Shown: in pieces, positions 1 through 13,253 of the stretch
Numbering within the stretch: position 1 is the first letter of the stretch
Layout of the letters: each line of letters opens with the position of its first letter
Origin: a virus
Virus genome (UHGV): UHGV-0121640
Strand: one strand, 5' to 3'
Length of the DNA stretch: 13,294 nucleotides
Position numbers and translations under genes: made by a program
The notes under the pieces: generated by a model
Told to the model about the DNA's origin: nothing
What the model saw: the letters and a program-made list of their open reading frames with translations, nothing else
The model's database searches: none

Positions 1-145
1 TTTCATCCACTTATTTCAGGCCAATGTAATTGGCGGTGATTCTACAGCAACTTGGATGCTTTAGCAGTTCGGACATTAGGCTACGAATGATCTGCCTAGA
101 GGTTTGTTAAGCCGCAAAGTGCTGGTGCTTTATGCCTGTGAAGTT

Positions 146-177
146 TATAATTGTGTACACATAACGAGTACACGAGG
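146..177 (+). promoter_or_regulatory. phd-doc promoter/operator region: TATAAT (146-151), palindrome GTGTACAC (153-160), near-repeat GAGTACAC (166-173), SD GAGG (174-177)
   Basis: Motifs read directly; Phd/Doc autoregulation through palindromic operator sites at its own promoter is established for P1. Exact site boundaries not verified. Confidence 0.45.
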
Positions 178-182
178 TATTT

Positions 183-404
183 ATGCAATCCATTAACTTC
201 CGTACCGCGCGCGGCAACCTTTCTGAAGTGCTCAACAATGTTGAGGCCGGGGAAGAGGTTGAAATCACCCGCAGAGGCCGTGAGCCAGCAGTAATTGTCA
301 GCAAGGCTACTTTCGAAGCCTACAAAAAAGCGGCGCTGGATGCTGAATTTGCATCCCTGTTTGACACCCTGGACTCCACCAACAAGGAACTGGTTAACCG
401 ATAA
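183..404 (+). CDS. phd: Phd antitoxin (prevent host death), 73 aa
   Basis: Translation [49 protein letters not shown]... matches P1 Phd as I recall it; SD GAGG 5 nt upstream; stop overlaps doc start (TAATG). Confidence 0.93.
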
Positions 405-784
405 TGAGGCATATATCACCGGAAGAACTTATTGCGCTTCATGATGCGAATATAAGCCGCTACGGCGGCCTGCCGGGAATGTCAGATCCGGGTAGGGCAG
501 AGGCCATTATCGGGAGAGTTCAGGCCAGAGTTGCCTACGAAGAGATTACCGACCTTTTCGAAGTCTCCGCCACCTACCTGGTGGCTACCGCGAGAGGGCA
601 TATATTCAATGATGCCAATAAGCGTACCGCGCTAAACAGTGCGCTGTTATTTCTACGCCGTAACGGGGTGCAGGTATTTGATTCACCTGAACTGGCAGAC
701 CTTACTGTAGGCGCTGCGACTGGCGAGATATCTGTATCTTCTGTCGCCGACACGTTACGTAGATTGTATGGTTCTGCGGAGTAG
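404..784 (+). CDS. doc: Doc toxin (death on curing), Fic-fold kinase, 126 aa
   Basis: Translation [22 protein letters not shown]... matches P1 Doc as recalled; translationally coupled to phd (ATG 404-406 overlaps phd TAA 402-404). Confidence 0.93.
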
Positions 785-788
785 ATTA

Positions 789-968
789 ATGGCACGCAAA
801 TACAACAAATTGTCCCGTGAAGCGTTAAAGATGCTTCTTGATGGCGTGAGTCGCCGCGAGGTAAAGCAATACCTGGTTGGTAAGCAAATTGGTGCTAGGA
901 CCGCTATTGCTGTGTTATGCCGTCAGGAAATGGTAGTGCTTAAACAGAGAATGCCGGGCAGCAGATAA
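789..968 (+). CDS. Small basic protein directly after doc; possible pdcA (post-doc) equivalent by position; start could be 768 or 789
   Basis: ORF in track (768-968); in-frame ATG at 789 lies just past the doc stop. Assignment rests on synteny only. Confidence 0.45.
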   Translation: MARKYNKLSREALKMLLDGVSRREVKQYLVGKQIGARTAIAVLCRQEMVVLKQRMPGSR

Positions 969-995
969 AGCCCAATCAGTGATTAAAGGTGTGAT

Positions 996-2039
996 GTGAA
1001 AGCCGTAATTACTCCCTTTGTACAGAAAGAGCTTGGCCTCGCCACGTTCAAAGTGGATCAGGAGGTCAGAAAGCTGGTGGAGGCTGGCCGTAAATTTATT
1101 ATGGAGCCGGTGCCGCGTGAGTTAATCGAGCACATGGAAGACGGCCTCGTTGTTACCGAGCAAACCATGGCAACAAATGAGGCGTTGCAGCCGTTTTTTA
1201 ACAGCGATGAACTGTTTCGCCGTATTGGTGGAATTGACGCGCTGGTGGCGTGGTTGCGTAGGAAAGAGGGTCAATGCCAGGCCGCAGATCGTAGTTGGTG
1301 TGACAACCATATTGTCCACGCTGAACGAGACAATAGCGCGGTGTTGTTGTGCTGGCATCACGATAACCATTACCGGATGCGTGGTTTTAATGAGCTGAAA
1401 GAAACGCTGCACAATAATCGCGTTAACTGGATACTGGATGTCGCCCGTCAGGAAATGGGCCTTTCAAATAGCCATGATTTAAGTATTCAGGAGCTGTGCT
1501 GGTGGGCTTTCATGCGCAACATGATGCACCTGATGCCGGAAGAAGTCTGCCGCATATCAATAAATAAGATGAAGGCTACTCCGCAGGATAGCGGACCACT
1601 GAAAGAGGCGGATATTCGCCCGTATGACGATCGCGCTACAGCATATGTTCAGATGATGGAAGAACGCGCCGCGCCGATGCGTGCAAAAGTATGCCCTGTG
1701 GATGTTGACTCCGACCCTGGCATGGCGCATTTCAAAATACCAAAACTGCGATCGCTAAAATTACCTGAGTACATGGACTTTGTTGCTTCCCGTCCATGCT
1801 GTGGGTGTGGAGCTGCGGGAGCTGGCGCTCACATTACGCCTTATATCGTTCGTCATAGTCGATTATGCGCGCATGACATTTATGCTATTCCTCTGTGCCA
1901 GTCATGCCAGCGTGATATTGAGCGTGACCGCGATAATTGGGAGAAGACGCACGGTAGGCTGGCGATGCATCAACGATTGTTCTTTGATTACGCGCTTGGA
2001 GTCGGCGCTATCACAAGTCATTCGTCGAGCGTTAGATAA
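996..2039 (+). CDS. Hypothetical 347-aa protein with Cys/His-rich C-terminus (CCGCG...C-x3-H...C-x2-C); possible pdcB equivalent by position
   Basis: Long ORF, GTG start preceded by AAGGTG; C-terminal Cys cluster suggests metal binding. No family assigned from sequence. Confidence 0.6.
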
Positions 2040-2040
2040 A

Positions 2041-2057
2041 ATTGCTCTAATGTATTG
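2041..2057 (+). promoter_or_regulatory. C1 operator-like site ATTGCTCTAATGTATTG (14/17 to consensus), followed by partial second copy (2054-2070) and a possible -35 TTGCTA / -10 TATTAT
   Basis: Direct match to recalled 17-bp asymmetric C1 operator consensus; sits 70 bp upstream of the 2128 ORF. Confidence 0.5.
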
Positions 2058-2127
2058 CTATTTCTTTAATTGAGGGTATTATATTCCACGTTGATTAGTT
2101 GACATGGGCTAATCAGTAGGTGACAGG

Positions 2128-2982
2128 ATGTTACTTAACTGGCAGGGACGCCATTTCATGGAAATAAATCACTCACGAATAACATCGTACGAGATTGCGG
2201 ATTACATGATCCGCACTAAATCTCTTCTATCAGCGAAAGAACTCGCAGCAATTCTTGAAAAGGAATACCCGCATCTGGATGTCGATAAGCGCGATGTTTA
2301 TCTGCGCTTAAAGGCTATCGCTGTGTCTAAGTATTCGTCTGTTTTGATTGATGACAGTACGTGTATTCGCCTGGTGCAGGAAATGCGCGATCAGCAAAAA
2401 GACGATGATGAAGGTACTCCGCCTGAATACCGTATCGCGAGCATGCTAAACAGCTGTTCCGCGCAGATAAGCAGCCTGATCAACACCATTTACAGCATCC
2501 GGAATAACTATCGAAAAGAAAGCCGGGAGGCGGAAAAGCACGCTTTGTCTATGGGGCAAGCTGGCATTGTTAAGCTGGCATACGAACGAAAGCGTGAAAA
2601 TAACTGGTCAGTGCTGGAAGCAGCTGAATTCATCGAGGCGCATGGTGGGAAAGTTCCGCCCCTGATGCTGGAGCAAATCAAAGCCGATCTGCGTGCTCCT
2701 AAGACCAATACCGATGACGAGGAAAACCAAACAGCATCTGGCGCTCCATCCCTTGAAGATCTGGATAAAATCGCACGAGAACGGGCCGCCAGCCGCCGCG
2801 CTGATGCCGCATTGTGGATTGAGCATCGTAGAGAAGAAATTGCCGGTATCGTCGATACAGGTGGTTATGGTGATGTCGATGCGGAAGGCATATCAAACGA
2901 AGCATGGCTTGAACAGGAGCTGGACGAAGACGAGGAGGAAGACGAAGAAGTTACCCGCAAACTGTACGGGGATGATGATTAA
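2128..2982 (+). CDS. Hypothetical 284-aa protein with strongly acidic C-terminal tail (DEDEEEDEE); operator-controlled; possibly a late-gene activator (Lpa-like) or terminase small-subunit-like protein
   Basis: Long ORF with coding-like composition; no Walker A; no P1 pac-type TGATCA hexamer cluster inside. Function not assignable from sequence. Confidence 0.6.
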
Positions 2983-3934
2983 TGGCCAGAAGTTGCGTAA
3001 CCGCATCTTATTACTGTCACAGCCTACACGCCCAAGCGGCTATTTCTACGATACACACCATAAACTGGCCAAGCGTCCTGGTAACCCAGATGGCGTTTAT
3101 ACGGCGATCACGCTTAACAGTGAGGAATCACCGCTGGTAACGCCAGAATTTATCAAAATGAAGCTGGCGGAGTACGGCGGGCGTGATAACCCTATGTACA
3201 TGATTAAGGTACGCGGCCTATTCCCTAAATCACAGGACGGATTCCTTCTTGGACGTGATGAGGTTGAACGTGCGACGCGGCGGAAAGTCAAGATTGCCAA
3301 AGGATGGGGCTGGCTTGCATGTGTGGACGTTGCTGGTGGTACAGGACGGGATAAGTCCGTTATCAATATCATGATGGTGTCCGGCCAGCGAAATAAACGC
3401 CGTGTAATCAACTATCGAATGCTGGAATACACAGACGTTACAGAAACGCAGCTTGCCGCCAAAATTTTCGCAGAATGTAATCCTGAGCGATTCCCCAATA
3501 TCACCATAGCGATAGACGGCGATGGCCTGGGTAAAGCAACGGCGGATCTGATGTACGAGTATTATGGTATTACCGTACAGCGCATACGCTGGGGTAAAAA
3601 GATGCATAGCCGTGAAGATAAGAGCCTGTACTTTGATAAGCGTGCTTATGCCAATGTTCAAGCCGCAGAGGCCGTAAAATCTGGTCGTATGAGACTGGAT
3701 AAGGGTAATGAAACTATTGAGGAAGCGTCGAAAATCCCTGTAGGGATTAACTCCGCAGGTCAATGGCGGGTGATGACTAAGGAAGACATGAAGAAAAAGC
3801 TCAACCTGCACTCACCAGACCATTGGGATACATATTGTTTCGCTATGCTGGCGGATTATGTTCCCCAGGATGAGGTGCTAAGCGTCGAAGACGAAGCGCA
3901 GGTTGATGAAGCTCTGGCATGGCTTAATGAATAA
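2972..3934 (+). CDS. Terminase large subunit-like protein, C-terminal RNase H-fold nuclease half only (about 320 aa); no Walker A/B ATPase motifs; start uncertain (ATG 2972 or 2975)
   Basis: Motifs LLLSQP (ATPase motif III-like), [41 protein letters not shown] resemble acidic catalytic motifs of terminase nuclease domains. The upstream 2693-2971 extension in the track looks non-coding (overlaps 2128 ORF in another frame). Confidence 0.5.
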
Positions 3935-3937
3935 ATA

Positions 3938-3954
3938 CTTGCTCTAATAAATTG
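3938..3954 (+). promoter_or_regulatory. C1 operator-like site CTTGCTCTAATAAATTG (15/17), overlapping a possible promoter (-35 TTGTGA 3952-3957, -10 TACATT 3975-3980)
   Basis: Direct sequence match; position analogous to the operator controlling the immI promoter in P1 (recalled). Confidence 0.5.
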
Positions 3955-4085
3955 TGATTTTTGACTGCCGATGTTACATTGAACCTGACATCTTGCGCCT
4001 TGAGGCATTTTCGGTTTATGCTTATCAGGCACCTCATTAAAACGGGTGCCGGGATTGAGACCCCGGATAATGCAAAAGGCGACAC

Positions 4086-4109
4086 AGACGCCAAAAGCGT
4101 CTTTTTTTT
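4086..4109 (+). terminator. Rho-independent terminator: stem AGACGC / GCGTCT, loop CAAAA, followed by T8
   Basis: Hairpin plus U-run read directly at 4086-4109. Confidence 0.6.
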
Positions 4110-4159
4110 GTGTCATGCCATCGCACAGCCATACGTAGCGTTTAGCTCAGAGATCAATG

Positions 4160-4238
4160 GTAGTGCTGGCTGGGCTGCCGAAAGGCAGGCCGGTTCCCTT
4201 TTGCGCCGGTAGTCTCAACCCAGTCAGTGCTACCGCCA
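4160..4238 (+). ncRNA. Candidate c4-like antisense RNA: about 77-nt three-way-junction (tRNA-like) structure; boundaries approximate
   Basis: 13-bp closing stem 4162-4174 / 4219-4231 (3 G-U), internal hairpins CTGCC-GAAA-GGCAG (4175-4188) and 4190-4209, single-stranded GTCTCAA (4212-4218) complementary to TTGAGAC at 4055-4061 and 4241-4253; GGCAGGCC complementary with one bulge to GGCTGCC just after the downstream SD. By analogy to P1 c4 (RNase P-processed antisense RNA). Confidence 0.3.
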
Positions 4239-4294
4239 TTGAGATTGAGACCTCACGCGGTAGCTCCTTAAATTAGCAAAAGGAGGCTGCCATT

Positions 4295-4516
4295 GTGGCT
4301 ACTATCCCTACCCCTGCTCATCCTGAATTTATCTGGCGCTTTTACTCCTGCCAAAAACGTCACTATCACTTCGTTATTGCACCGACAGAAGATGAGGCAC
4401 GTTCTCAGCTTCCTGACGCCCCATGTATTTTCTCTGCCCGTTTTTCCACTGATTCACGCAATTCTCTCAGTTACTGGTGCCTCCCTGTTAACGCTTCTGC
4501 TCAGGAGGGACTATGA
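4295..4516 (+). CDS. 73-aa small protein, GTG start, translationally coupled to the antirepressor (ATGA overlap); icd-like position in an immI-type operon
   Basis: Strong SD AAAGGAGG (4279-4286) 8 nt before GTG 4295; stop TGA 4514-4516 overlaps ATG 4513. Size matches recalled P1 Icd (73 aa); sequence identity not verified. Confidence 0.5.
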   Translation: MATIPTPAHPEFIWRFYSCQKRHYHFVIAPTEDEARSQLPDAPCIFSARFSTDSRNSLSYWCLPVNASAQEGL

Positions 4517-5625
4517 GAACATCGTTAGTTACCCGTGAAGAGATGATCGAGGCAATTGAACAGCACACTGCCTGTATCAGTACCAGGGATATACCTGGCG
4601 TTATTGCCAACTACTTCATGATCACCAAACAACTTTACCGGAGAAAGGACAAACACGCGGTTCACCGCATTCTGCTAACCGATATCCGAGAATACCTGCT
4701 CGAACAGGGTCATCTGAATTACGCAACCGTCGCAGCCGAAGCACGCAAGGAGGCACACAGAATGAAAGCAACTAACGTTAAATCAGAAAAAATTTATGCA
4801 CCTTCAGTTCAGGAATCGGAACTGGTGGTTGTTCAGAATCAGCCGGATGAAATTCCCGTTCTGGAATGGCAGGGAGTACGTGTCGTGACAACCGAAACTC
4901 TTGCTAGAGGGTATGGGGTCGATGAAGCCAATATTCGCAACAATTTGTCTCGCAACCTTGACCGCTTTGAAGAAGGTAAGCATTACTTTCTTCTAACTGG
5001 TTTAAAATTAAGAGAATTTAAGAACAGAGTAACTGGAAGTTACTCTGTTGGTAAGAACGCCAGAAGCCTTACACTCTGGACAGAGCGCGGCGCTGCACGC
5101 ATGTCTAAGATCGTGGACACAAATGAAGCATGGGCATTCTTTGAAAAACTGGAAGACAGCTACTTCCGACAAAAAGAACAGCAACCGGTTGCAATCCCCC
5201 AAACATTACCAGAAGCCCTACGCCTGGCTGCCGAACTGGCTGAACAAAAGCAGCTTCTGGAACAGAAAGCCCACCAGCTAAATCAGCAGCTGGTGGCCGC
5301 CGCTCCTAAGGTCGATTTTGCCGACCGGGTATCAGTAGCTAAAGGGATCCTGATTGGGAATTTTGCAAAGGTTGTTGGACTTAAGCAAAACGCGCTGTTT
5401 GCCTGGTTACGGGAGAACGGCATCCTGATAGCGTCCGGTGGACGTAAAAATGTGCCGTTCCAGCAGTACATCAACGCGGGGTATTTCACGGTGAAAGAAG
5501 TGGTGCTGGATGATGAAAATGGCTACCAGATACGGCTGACGCCCCAATTAACGGGTAAAGGCCAGCAGTGGTTGACGCGTAAACTGCTCGATGCTGGCTT
5601 GTTAAAACCGGTGGCGGCTGAATAA
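4513..5625 (+). CDS. ant: Phage antirepressor, N-terminal ORF6N-type and C-terminal KilAC-type domains (370 aa); nested in-frame internal start at 4762 (287 aa) with its own SD, Ant1/Ant2-like
   Basis: ORF6N-like stretch LEWQGVRVVTTETLARGYGVDEANIRNNLSRNLDRFEEGKHYFLLTGLKLREF; KilAC-like stretch VSVAKGILIGNFAKVVGLKQNALFAWLRENGIL...QQYINAGYF; SD AAGGAGG (4747-4753) before ATG 4762. Sizes fit recalled P1 Ant1/Ant2 (42/32 kDa). Confidence 0.75.
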   Translation: MRTSLVTREEMIEAIEQHTACISTRDIPGVIANYFMITKQLYRRKDKHAVHRILLTDIREYLLEQGHLNYATVAAEARKEAHRMKATNVKSEKIYAPSVQESELVVVQNQPDEIPVLEWQGVRVVTTETLARGYGVDEANIRNNLSRNLDRFEEGKHYFLLTGLKLREFKNRVTGSYSVGKNARSLTLWTERGAARMSKIVDTNEAWAFFEKLEDSYFRQKEQQPVAIPQTLPEALRLAAELAEQKQLLEQKAHQLNQQLVAAAPKVDFADRVSVAKGILIGNFAKVVGLKQNALFAWLRENGILIASGGRKNVPFQQYINAGYFTVKEVVLDDENGYQIRLTPQLTGKGQQWLTRKLLDAGLLKPVAAE

Positions 5626-10753: not shown

Positions 10754-12058
10754 ATGAGCGAGTATATAGAAATTGCCTATGCAGCAGCTACACATAGGCT
10801 GTGCTTTCTTACAGGCACTGGATTTTCAAAGGCTGTTTCTGATGATAAAGCCCCAAGTTGGCAATCTTTATTGGAGCAACTGTGCGGTTTATTGAAGGAT
10901 GGTGACTCACTCAAAGAGGAATTATTTCCTGATGGAAAAGCAAAAGACCTTAGCCTTGAAGAGGCTGCTCAGGTTATTGCACTAAAATTTATACTTTCGG
11001 GGAAAAATATTTACCAGGAGATTGAGAAAATCATAGCCTCAATCGAACTTGATCCATCAATTGAATATATTCAAGACTTTTTCAAAGAAAACACATTTAA
11101 AGTAATTACGACAAATTATGACAAGTTAGCAGAAAAACTGGCTGGAGAGAATCGAACGTGTACAATCACCCCCGGCCTGCCAATTCCAAAATATAATTGT
11201 GAGGTTAAAGTCTACCATGTTCACGGCTCTATAGACTCCCCATCAGATATGGTTGTTACTAGCGAGGATTATTTCAGATTTATAAATGGTAATTCTTACT
11301 TTTCAAATAAACTAAGCACAGTTCTACATGAAAACACTATTGTTATTCTTGGCTATTCTCTAAGTGACGCGAACCTCAAGGCGATTATAAATGAATATAA
11401 GGTATTTTCACGGGACAACGTAATGTCCTCCAATATTTTCCTTATTTCCCGAGGGAAACTATTGCAACCTATTAAAGATTACTATTTTTCCTGCTTTGGG
11501 ATTAGGGTTATAGATAAAACAGAGGTGTCTGATTTCTTTAGAAAACTTAACAAGAAAATTCCAGAAGCAAAAAAAATAAAAGACAAATTGAGGCACTCAA
11601 TCAAATCGGTAATAAAAAACGGAAGAGAGTATAAAATAGAGTTCTTGAAGTTAGAGGATTCTTTTTATCATATCATTTCCTCCATTTCATCATCTGGATA
11701 TAGCTGGAATGATGAAAAGGTATTAAATGTTTTTTGTGATATAATAGATAAAAAAATAGATCTTACTAAAGAGTCTGGCGCATGGGAGCAGTATGAACAC
11801 CTGGCAAAATGGCTTATTTATTTCGGTAGTTTATTTGAAGTAAAAGGAACCAACTTTGAGAAAAAATACATACATGCGGTTGAACACTCAATGACTTATA
11901 TGAATAAACCTTACGAAACAGGCTACTCATGGCGAGCATATCTAGCCTGGAAAACAAAATGGCCTTCACTGACAGCATCTAACCGCTCTCTTATTAAGAG
12001 TAAGATGGAAGAAATCCCGCTACAACAGATTCACGATATTATATCTAAGTTTATATAG
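10754..12058 (+). CDS. SIR2-family (sirtuin-like, DHS-like NAD-binding fold) protein, 434 aa: N-terminal predicted NADase domain + unassigned C-terminal domain of about 180 aa; candidate defense effector
   Basis: Motif series FLTGTGFS, TTNYDKLAEK, YHVHGS, VILGYSLSDANL in the order and spacing seen in ThsA/DSR-type SIR2 domains; SD GGAG 7 nt before ATG; gene visibly AT-rich versus flanks. Confidence 0.8.
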   Translation: MSEYIEIAYAAATHRLCFLTGTGFSKAVSDDKAPSWQSLLEQLCGLLKDGDSLKEELFPDGKAKDLSLEEAAQVIALKFILSGKNIYQEIEKIIASIELDPSIEYIQDFFKENTFKVITTNYDKLAEKLAGENRTCTITPGLPIPKYNCEVKVYHVHGSIDSPSDMVVTSEDYFRFINGNSYFSNKLSTVLHENTIVILGYSLSDANLKAIINEYKVFSRDNVMSSNIFLISRGKLLQPIKDYYFSCFGIRVIDKTEVSDFFRKLNKKIPEAKKIKDKLRHSIKSVIKNGREYKIEFLKLEDSFYHIISSISSSGYSWNDEKVLNVFCDIIDKKIDLTKESGAWEQYEHLAKWLIYFGSLFEVKGTNFEKKYIHAVEHSMTYMNKPYETGYSWRAYLAWKTKWPSLTASNRSLIKSKMEEIPLQQIHDIISKFI

Positions 12059-12066
12059 TATATTTA

Positions 12067-12095
12067 TCTCCGGCCTAATCTCCCTAGGCCGGAGA
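12067..12095. terminator. Hairpin TCTCCGGCC-taatctcccta-GGCCGGAGA between convergent SIR2-like gene and lxc-like gene; possible bidirectional terminator
   Basis: 9-bp perfect stem read directly; downstream TTCTT on the plus strand. Confidence 0.45.
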
Positions 12096-12099
12096 GTTC

Positions 12100-12348
12100 T
12101 TAATCAGCATTCAGGAGCAATGCGTTATCTATGATGATCTGCTCCCATTCCTCGAATGCCCGATCGCGGACGCCCTGGGGAACGCTGTTAGTTTTGAAAT
12201 CGACGACCGTCCGCCATTTTCCGTCCGGACGGTACATGCGCAGAGCTTTACTTCCCCCTTCCCTGCGCACCTCAACGTTATGCTTGTCAGCAAACTCTTG
12301 TAATGCTCGTAGCGTCCCATGCTTTACTGTGTAGTATCGCTTTTTCAA
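12100..12348 (-). CDS. 82-aa protein, TTG start overlapping upstream stop (TTGA); lxc/bof-like position (C1 corepressor) by synteny
   Basis: ORF in track; size and position match recalled P1 lxc (bof); sequence identity not verified. Confidence 0.45.
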   Translation of the reverse strand: MKKRYYTVKHGTLRALQEFADKHNVEVRREGGSKALRMYRPDGKWRTVVDFKTNSVPQGVRDRAFEEWEQIIIDNALLLNAD

Positions 12349-12785
12349 GTTTTCTCTCCAGCCTGTGCTAAGGCTTCAACTTCCAAATCGTAAGACTCAA
12401 ACTCATAGTCCTGGTCGTCAACCTCTTCAGGCACTGGCAGTAAATGCCAGGCTGAGTATATCTGACCATTATCAAAACGCTCCTGGCTGTAGAGCGTCGC
12501 GGCTATGAGTGTTAGCGCCGGGCGGTCATAACGGTAAATTTTGCGAACGTCACGGTCAACGAGACGACCGAAATTACCATAACCGCGCTCCAGTAATAAT
12601 TTTTTAATTTCCGGCCAGTATGGACCATAGCTGCGGTACAGGCGGGGATTTTTCAGTAATCGCCCGCGTAGCCCTGACAGGAAGAAATCAACGTATTCGT
12701 CTTCTGTCTTTCCTAACAACGCTGTACGGAGTACCGCCTCAAGATATGTTTTATTCGGTTTTATTGTATCAGATAGTGTGGCCAT
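12345..12785 (-). CDS. Hypothetical 146-aa protein; ulx-like position upstream of the lxc-like gene
   Basis: ORF in track with coding-like composition; synteny only. Confidence 0.45.
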   Translation of the reverse strand: MATLSDTIKPNKTYLEAVLRTALLGKTEDEYVDFFLSGLRGRLLKNPRLYRSYGPYWPEIKKLLLERGYGNFGRLVDRDVRKIYRYDRPALTLIAATLYSQERFDNGQIYSAWHLLPVPEEVDDQDYEFESYDLEVEALAQAGEKT

Positions 12786-12818
12786 ATTATGCGACGCCCG
12801 GCGAACCGGGCGCTCCTG

Positions 12819-13253
12819 TTATGCGTATTGTTGGATGACGGCCAGAACGTCCGCCACGTTGTGTTTTGTCTCGATAATCCACCAGTTACCCGGGAAATCG
12901 CTGTTCTTCGCCTTCGCTGGCAGCCAGCGAGCGCCGAATTTCGCCTTGATTGCGTCTTTCGCACGGAAAAGAACGCCTTTCATGCCTGAGGCTTCCTGAA
13001 GCCCAAATACCTCGCCAGCGGCGAATTTTGGTGCGTACATCATCTTCAGGTCGGCGGTGGATACGCGATAATTCAGACCAAGAGACTGAGCTATGCTGGT
13101 GGCATCACCCTGTATTGATGATAACTCTTCTTGTTTCTCGTTTCTGGCGGCAATCTCTTCCTCCGTGATGTTGCCAAGGGCCAGGTTTATCCGATCAGCG
13201 TCGGCCTGTTTCTCTTCATCGGTGCGCCCGGCAAGAACCGGTGATGCTGCCAA
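12819..13253 (-). CDS. Hypothetical 144-aa protein, TTG start; function unknown
   Basis: ORF in track; in-frame stop 3 codons upstream of the TTG so not a longer gene; no family recognised. Confidence 0.35.
   Translation of the reverse strand: MAASPVLAGRTDEEKQADADRINLALGNITEEEIAARNEKQEELSSIQGDATSIAQSLGLNYRVSTADLKMMYAPKFAAGEVFGLQEASGMKGVLFRAKDAIKAKFGARWLPAKAKNSDFPGNWWIIETKHNVADVLAVIQQYA

Follow-up and report, generated by a model that had tools for sequence, protein, structure and literature searches.

Positions 2128 to 3934 of the virus genome UHGV-0121640 very probably hold the decayed lpa-pacA-pacB module of a P1-like phage-plasmid, reduced by two successive microhomology-mediated deletions, here called D1 and D2. 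The window, by which we mean the whole stretch of 13,294 nucleotides that was analysed, supplies all coordinates given below unless another record is named. Defective P1-derived plasmids are a known kind of element, and the region represents ordinary decay of a phage into a plasmid and no new packaging system. A preliminary description, made by reading the letters, had seen here a packaging-like gene pair and had offered two ways to understand it: packaging by a different terminase encoded elsewhere, or a terminase remnant, shortened at its N-terminus, that had become part of a new operon. The truncated remnant is what we find, the open reading frame at 2972-3934 being PacB residues 184-494 after a 532-bp internal deletion. 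The "new operon" finds no support, as gene order and control by Plpa/Olpa are ancestral and lpa-pacA-pacB has collapsed through two deletions.

The window is a segment of a P1-like phage-plasmid with the gene order phd-doc-pdcAB-lpa-pacA-pacB-ant-c1-cre-ref. Outside the feature it carries phd, doc, pdcA and pdcB, followed by an ash-icd-ant module placed as in RCS47, and then c1, coi, cre, ref and a SIR2 gene. Synteny with the Punavirus backbone extends across phd-doc, pdcAB, lpa-pac, c1-coi, lox-cre and ref, at 92-98% nucleotide identity to P1, P7 and RCS47. The products of phd (73 aa), doc (126 aa), c1 (283 aa) and cre (343 aa) have the lengths found in intact relatives, and c1-coi is intact in the window. 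Among P1-family phages, the 2.2 kb around the feature are 96.7% identical to RCS47 and JL22 and 92% identical to P1 and P7; 2201 window bases align there in three pieces that cover 3610 phage bases, and the annotated features beneath them are pdcB, lpa, pacA and pacB. Taken over the whole window, the nearest relative from culture is the E. coli plasmid pHNTH9F11-2 (92.6 kb, 98.2% identical in three aligned pieces), whose lpa (453 nt), pacA (1194 nt) and pacB (1485 nt) are all full-length and follow one another as in the window. This plasmid and RCS47, both with intact lpa, pacA and pacB, are 96-98% identical to the window. The part of the element that is available amounts to 19.8 kb of roughly 90 kb, with the repA/par replicon lying outside that 19.8 kb.

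The deletions were mapped by pairwise blastn of the window against P1 (record L001), RCS47 (L002) and pHNTH9F11-2 (L011). The three results agree: the window is collinear with each of these references save for two gaps of 877 and 532 bp, and the collinearity with P1 and RCS47 at nucleotide level settles what the region is. The module of P1 and RCS47 and that of the window share their position between pdcB and the immunity region as well as Olpa and Plpa, and the retained module segments are 92-98% nucleotide-identical. They differ in that the P1/RCS47 module comprises a late activator and a two-subunit pacase with pac inside pacA, whereas the window has an lpa-pacA fusion and a native pacB start shifted out of frame, and lacks the 877 and 532 bp.

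In P1, C1 represses the promoter Plpa through the operator Olpa. The corresponding elements of the window, together with a second operator-like site, are the following.

2041..2057, plus strand: C1 operator Olpa, ATTGCTCTAATGTATTG, identical to the annotated P1 Olpa (L001 2642-2658).
2055..2082, plus strand: sigma-70 promoter Plpa, with -35 hexamer TTGCTA and -10 hexamer TATTAT, both as in the P1 annotation.
3938..3954, plus strand: C1-operator-like site, CTTGCTCTAATAAATTG, just downstream of the pacB remnant and before ash-icd-ant, with 2 mismatches to the consensus.

The last of these sites was scored against ATTGCTCTAATAAATTT, which we take to be the P1 C1 operator consensus, and the gene order around it follows pHNTH9F11-2. 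The operator at 2041-2057 had been named in the preliminary description and proved to be a base-for-base match to P1 Olpa. What follows this conserved control region is a joined reading frame and the first of the two junctions.

2128..2982, plus strand: chimeric reading frame lpa'::'pacA of 284 aa, in which Lpa residues 1-78 are joined in frame to PacA residues 191-397, both parts confirmed by tblastn.
2358..2360, no strand: D1 junction, 877 bp missing with a 3-nt microhomology TAC, where the blastn offset against P1 and RCS47 changes from 601 to 1478; also seen in the junction alignment.

By blastn, window positions 1-2360 are collinear with the reference up to lpa codon 78, and positions 2358-3001 correspond to pacA codon 191 through pacB codon 7. 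D1 removed the equivalent of L001 2962-3838, that is, Lpa residues 79-150, the Lpa-dependent late promoter LPpac and PacA residues 1-190. According to the P1 annotation, the same interval contains the four positions at which pac cleavage has been mapped, along with the IHF site (IHF and cut sites within L001 3522-3551). The pac site is a 161-bp element with seven TGATCA/G hexamers, located within pacA (PMC10028697), and a hexamer scan places all seven P1 hexamers, a 4+3 cluster at L001 3460-3494 and 3590-3613, inside the D1 interval. The hexamers that do occur in 2128-3934 are isolated, at 2388, 2477 and 3105, which bears out the earlier observation, made by eye, that this stretch holds no pac-like cluster.

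The missing length of 877 bp is 3n+1 and offsets the frame difference between lpa and pacA; the 284-aa reading frame is therefore Lpa(1-78)::PacA(191-397). Profile comparisons divide the protein at the same place. The Pfam family BPP1_LPA (PF25716) matches residues 15-81 with profile positions 1-67 of 131, while full-length P1 Lpa matches positions 1-130, and the full-length domain is absent from the window. PHROG family 1704 (Lpa) matches residues 1-81 of the chimera, and PHROG family 1711 (PacA) matches residues 77-284 with profile positions 194-402 of 417. In the preliminary description this frame figured as one member of a packaging-like pair, with an acidic tail, and it was thereby taken for something like a small terminase; the Pfam and PHROG matches to an in-frame chimera do not support this. 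Full-length PacA gives weak, sub-threshold Pfam helix-turn-helix (HTH) matches within residues 7-54 and a match of PHROG 370 (terminase small subunit) to residues 3-104, and this N-terminal region has gone from the window, which keeps PacA residues 191-397 only. Searching both reading frames of the region against Pfam gave no terminase or ATPase domain, the sole match being the Lpa half-domain. That half-domain was the first clue to the chimera. A domain common to Lpa and Ant had also been considered, as hinted by a PHROG 63 match and by "Ant" labels under the lpa matches, and was rejected, since BLASTP of the chimera against the Ant protein of the window finds nothing; at least some of these "Ant" labels denote lpa-ant deletion fusions.

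The second deletion lies a short distance downstream, at the beginning of pacB.

2843..2871, plus strand: predicted promoter PpacB, kept inside the pacA remnant and equivalent to P1 L001 4321-4349 with 1 mismatch.
2972..3934, plus strand: 'pacB remnant reading frame, which from 2999 corresponds to PacB residues 184-494, covering the distal ATPase region and the nuclease domain.
2982..3140, plus strand: native pacB start, now opening a 52-aa nonsense reading frame that reads MARSCVT and then unrelated sequence (tblastn places PacB residues 1-7 at 2982-3002).
2998..3001, no strand: D2 junction, 532 bp missing with a 4-nt microhomology TAAC, where the blastn offset changes from 1478 to 2010; also seen in the junction alignment.

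From 2998 onward the window corresponds by blastn to pacB codon 184 onward. D2 removed PacB residues 8-183, and with them Walker A (GHGTGKS, residues 57-63) and Walker B (LLYIIDEA, about residues 156-163). As the deleted length is again 3n+1, the native pacB ATG at 2982 now opens the 52-aa nonsense frame, and instead of a complete large-terminase frame one reads seven native residues followed by a frameshift. PacB residues 184-494 are found in the third frame, behind an ATGATG (2972-2977) that derives from the GAT GAT GAT (Asp-Asp-Asp) codons at the end of pacA and that is present in every P1 relative; gene callers start the remnant at the ATG at 2975, which gives 319 aa. The remnant is 98.7% identical by tblastn to RCS47 PacB 184-494, the C-terminal 311 residues, and matches the large terminase subunit family phrog_2 (E = 1.3e-20) at profile positions 392-598, compared with 261-596 for full-length PacB. 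Homology thus assigns to it a predicted C-terminal nuclease domain. When full-length PacB was searched against PDB sequences, the only match was to the large terminase Sf6 gp2, collinear and without significance (E = 0.28).

The features noted earlier in this stretch all hold up. The reading frames 2128-2982 (284 aa) and 2693-3934 are both present and overlap by 11 nt when the second is taken from its in-frame ATGs at 2972 and 2975, and the motif LLLSQP is there, at about PacB residues 187-192. The reported lack of a Walker A motif was likewise reproduced by every approach: a regular-expression scan found none in either frame, no AAA/ATPase profile matches the PacB remnant, and six-frame tblastn of PacB residues 7-183 against the window returned nothing significant (best E = 0.077, over 16 aa). 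Walker B belongs to the deleted residues 8-183, and the segments deleted by D1 and D2 are absent elsewhere in the window at both DNA and protein level. The suggestion of programmed +1 frameshifting between the two frames fared differently. Intact P1, RCS47 and pHNTH9F11-2 also have this frame open, from the same GTG at which it opens at 2693 in the window, and in them it closes 22 codons past the ATGATG. Its openness in the window is incidental, because it is open in intact phages too, and nothing points to programmed frameshifting: the upstream open frame is an ancestral by-product of the acidic 3′ end of pacA.

The fusion is not confined to one assembly. The exact 284-aa protein was found on 11 contigs from six independent samples, and wherever a contig or record name gives a source, it is human gut metagenome. 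Accessions belonging to these samples are ERZ651884, ERR1578677, ERR2017777, SRR10692781, SAMEA104142433 and ERZ27262169. The styles of the contig names (NODE_, k127_, k99_, Logan, scaffold_) suggest different assemblers. ENA ERZ651884 NODE_1355 ends in 13.3 kb that match the window letter for letter, and 0-5 SNPs, counted over as much as 12 kb, separate the other contigs from it. An NCBI third-party annotation assigns a short member of the protein cluster to E. coli. One contig, L006 (SRR10692781), carries D1, keeps the 532 bp and encodes the full 494-aa PacB, and its flanks on either side of D2 match the window at 100% identity. With D1, an intact pacB and no flanking SNPs, this contig shows that D1 came first and that D2 followed later in one lineage. 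Two contigs of run ERR2017777, L007 and L005, are three clustered SNPs apart and so reveal a second P1-like sequence variant in one sample.

Neither junction was found in about 610 P1-like plasmids of PLSDB, in about 600 P1-like records among 5,426 complete E. coli genomes, or in IMG/VR, and the D1 junction was also absent from INPHARED phages, GTDB representative genomes and JGI metagenomes; for the D2 junction the search used a 56-nt query with a strict E-value. The allele with D1 and D2 is not catalogued in the collections searched, and the kind of event is already known. Some observations speak against plain decay: both remnants still hold long open frames, D1 preserves the reading frame, and inactivating SNPs were found in neither remnant across the six samples, the last being compatible with a very recent deletion and also with retention under selection.

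Decay of this module is common among relatives. Among the lpa-pacA-pacB matches in E. coli records, 146 of 687 hold less than 80% of the region. The losses that we inspected in other P1-like plasmids are independent events, none having the D1 or D2 junction. In pPSJ-07_1 a deletion begins inside lpa and runs into ant, leaving two pseudogenes. In pMTY9803_untypable1 (61 kb) the deletion also starts in lpa and has joined lpa and ant in frame, the product being annotated as an Ant protein of 381 aa. In the CX07 plasmid unnamed2, IS26/Tn3 cuts pacA, and pacB has been lost, and pLR-46_1 combines a frameshift in pacA with a TEM-1 transposon that cuts pacB. In the cluster formed around the PacB remnant at 90% identity there are also N-terminally truncated PacB reading frames of 307, 364 and 375 aa, on 57, 52 and 13 isolate contigs, respectively. 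It has been described that P1-like phage-plasmids become plasmids by gene loss (Pfeifer and Rocha 2024, PMC10879196) and that pJIE250-3, which derives from P1, no longer has certain lytic functions (Venturini et al. 2019, PMC6906374). The element studied here resembles these defective P1-derived plasmids in its P1-like backbone, in the loss of lytic genes and in the retention of phd-doc, cre and c1; it differs in that its losses come from two internal deletions, short and precise, with chimeric and truncated reading frames as their outcome, where the published cases (PMC10879196, PMC6906374) show large deletions, IS or transposon insertions and cargo acquisition.

The likely course of events can be put together as follows. 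Both deletions probably arose by replication slippage or illegitimate recombination, as suggested by the TAC and TAAC microhomologies at their ends and the absence of other scars. D1 destroyed the Lpa activator by joining lpa codon 78 in frame to pacA codon 191, and took along LPpac, the HTH region at the N-terminus of PacA and the whole 161-bp pac site. D2, at a later time, cut out PacB residues 8-183, both Walker motifs among them, and shifted the frame behind the native pacB start. Left over from this are a C1-repressed chimeric reading frame, the 52-aa nonsense frame, and a remnant of the PacB nuclease domain that lies in frame with ATGATG by chance.

The deletions, their order, the motifs lost with them and their presence in several samples are established by the sequences; the functional consequences are drawn from the genetics of P1. 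That phage needs every one of lpa, pacA and pacB to form plaques, and its 11 late promoters are driven by Lpa; when any of the three genes was knocked down by CRISPRi, plating fell below 1.2e-7, and amber mutants of each gene have been reported (PMC10695390). By analogy, the element would have lost its phage function: upon inactivation of C1 the chimeric protein would be made, but no functional activator, so that the morphogenesis and lysis genes would see no late transcription; with no pacase made and pac absent, the element would be unable to cut pac or to package DNA. The essentiality of the three genes in P1 and the loss of pac together suggest that it can neither complete a lytic cycle nor package its own genome. 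Horizontal spread as a virus would be lost because late transcription, pacase and the pac site would all be missing. The element would then persist only as a plasmid and rely on its plasmid functions, of which the addiction genes phd-doc, c1-coi with the immunity gene c1, and the cre-lox system are intact in the window.

One may ask whether the remnants have been put to a new use. The C1-controlled Lpa(1-78)::PacA(191-397) chimera, perhaps together with a free PacB nuclease domain, might serve as a dominant-negative device for superinfection exclusion, an idea to which we give very little weight; its further elaboration, that the products are made on derepression or superinfection and act as decoys against incoming P1-like phages, whose late transcription or pacase assembly they would poison, strikes us as just as improbable. 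That the chimera is in frame and unmutated, the support for such an exaptation, is explained equally well by chance and recency. The native promoter, operator and start codon survive D1, which also preserves the frame, but an in-frame outcome is expected by chance in one case out of three. A usable ATG of the PacB remnant overlaps the stop codon upstream of it, but the ATGATG and the upstream open frame are ancestral accidents of intact phages, and the native pacB ATG at 2982, in its ancestral TAATG stop-start overlap, leads into the 52-aa peptide and would probably compete for reinitiating ribosomes. The chimera is 100% conserved in six samples, but with the samples 0-5 SNPs apart over up to 12 kb this conservation reflects recency only. 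The lpa-derived in-frame fusion in pMTY9803_untypable1, with its 381-aa Ant label, offers a parallel of a kind, but pPSJ-07_1 and the CX07 plasmid unnamed2 have deleted the region without such reading frames, and PADLOC matches neither of the two frames. If the exaptation were true, a decayed packaging module would have turned into an exclusion device and the plasmid would have gained superinfection exclusion.

Decay into a plasmid also has to be weighed against the reading that the element is still a virus, either with another terminase and packaging site outside the window or as a satellite packaged by a co-resident P1-like helper phage. With 19.8 kb visible of the roughly 90-kb element, the rest may hold a second activator, a second terminase or a second pac site, and the L007 and L005 variants in run ERR2017777 indicate that helpers may co-occur. 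However, a P1 helper pacase has no specific target on an element without pac, the late genes of the element itself would stay silent without Lpa, and the 24 gene calls on the longest contig include no match to a terminase family. We know of no P1-like element with a replaced terminase. A terminase elsewhere is in any case made moot by the loss of Lpa, which P1 needs for late transcription, and we consider continued existence as a virus slightly less probable even than a new use of the remnants. Lastly, an assembly artefact, with false deletions in a true element that has intact lpa-pacA-pacB, could account for the junctions being missing from all isolate-based collections searched, but hardly deserves belief given identical junctions in six samples from apparently different assemblers, a contig with D1 only, and microhomologies of 3-4 nt that are probably too short to collapse an assembly graph.

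Decay of the lpa-pacA-pacB module through D1 and D2 reveals no new packaging mechanism, and its importance is small beyond bookkeeping. It carries a warning for annotation, in that gene callers label such remnants "terminase", "late promoter-activating protein" or "hypothetical protein", and tools for typing phage-plasmids could score a defective element of this sort as a complete phage. It also provides a clean natural example of the stepwise passage from a P1-like phage-plasmid to a plain plasmid, with the intermediate carrying D1 only and the end state carrying both D1 and D2 present in public gut metagenomes.

The pacA remnant left between the two deletion junctions (2358-3001) shares 98.4% identity with RCS47 and 94% with P1 and pHNTH9F11-2 alike, whereas the segments flanking it are 98.4-98.6% identical to pHNTH9F11-2. 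At the level of sequence identity, this contrast between the remnant and its flanks points to the pac region being a recombination mosaic. Variation was also seen within a single sequencing run (ERR2017777), where two assemblies, L007 and L005, disagree at three SNPs (window-equivalent positions 3871, 3874 and 3880) that cluster at the 3' end of what is left of pacB; this suggests that the sample has a second P1-like variant or that one of the contigs is chimeric.

TGATCA/G-type hexamers cluster at one place only in the window (7263, 7316, 7324 and 7332), just beyond lox and upstream of cre, a position that marks the cluster as something other than a pac site. It is probably the Dam-methylated regulatory region of cre that is known from P1.

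The region following the pacB remnant is arranged as in RCS47-type elements, which carry ash-icd-ant between pacB and c1, and differs from P1, which is without this module there:

3938-3954: strong C1-operator-like site (CTTGCTCTAATAAATTG), immediately past the pacB stop
3961-5625: ash-icd-ant module, next after this site, with an antirepressor composed of ORF6N and KilAC

P1 homology is absent from the start of the window and begins only at position 101-107. The longer contig L003, which reaches further upstream, contains a locus directly 5' of phd-doc that replaces P1 humD, and the same arrangement is found ahead of phd-doc in pHNTH9F11-2:

L003 495-6485: type I restriction-modification genes hsdM, hsdS and hsdR, forming a complete locus, together with a fragment of an IS1595-family transposase; all of this precedes window position 1

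At the other end, the position downstream of ref and mat, in P1 that of res-mod, is occupied as follows:

10754-12058, plus strand: SIR2_2-domain protein, 434 aa
12100-12348, minus strand: feature past the SIR2_2 gene
12345-12785, minus strand: feature past the SIR2_2 gene
12819-13253, minus strand: feature past the SIR2_2 gene

The SIR2_2 protein matches PDC-S25 in PADLOC (E 5e-24), with weaker matches to ThsA, LmuA and Dsr2. Small minus-strand ORFs follow, and then a gene that the pHNTH9F11-2 annotation calls a helicase without its N-terminus, adjoining IS26. The region as a whole (10754-13253) looks like a cargo island of defence genes.

Two other E. coli plasmids have lost sequence between lpa and ant, in independent events:

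L013 (NZ_CP135674.1) 3001-4146: locus affected by a deletion starting inside lpa and ending inside ant
L012 (NZ_AP027620.1) 3001-3526: locus affected by a deletion starting inside lpa and ending inside ant

One of the two produced an in-frame Lpa::Ant fusion of 381 aa, named "phage antirepressor Ant" in RefSeq; fusions so named may be the source of the weak match of PHROG 63 (Ant) to the Lpa N-terminus.

In the protein cluster of the remnant ORF (2975-3931; P0006, P0007 and P0008), PacB ORFs that lack their N-terminal part, 307, 364 and 375 aa long, recur on 57, 52 and 13 contigs from cultured E. coli, respectively, some of these contigs exceeding 100 kb. The N-terminal sequence of P0007 is non-native. 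These truncated ORFs suggest further independent disruptions of pacB.
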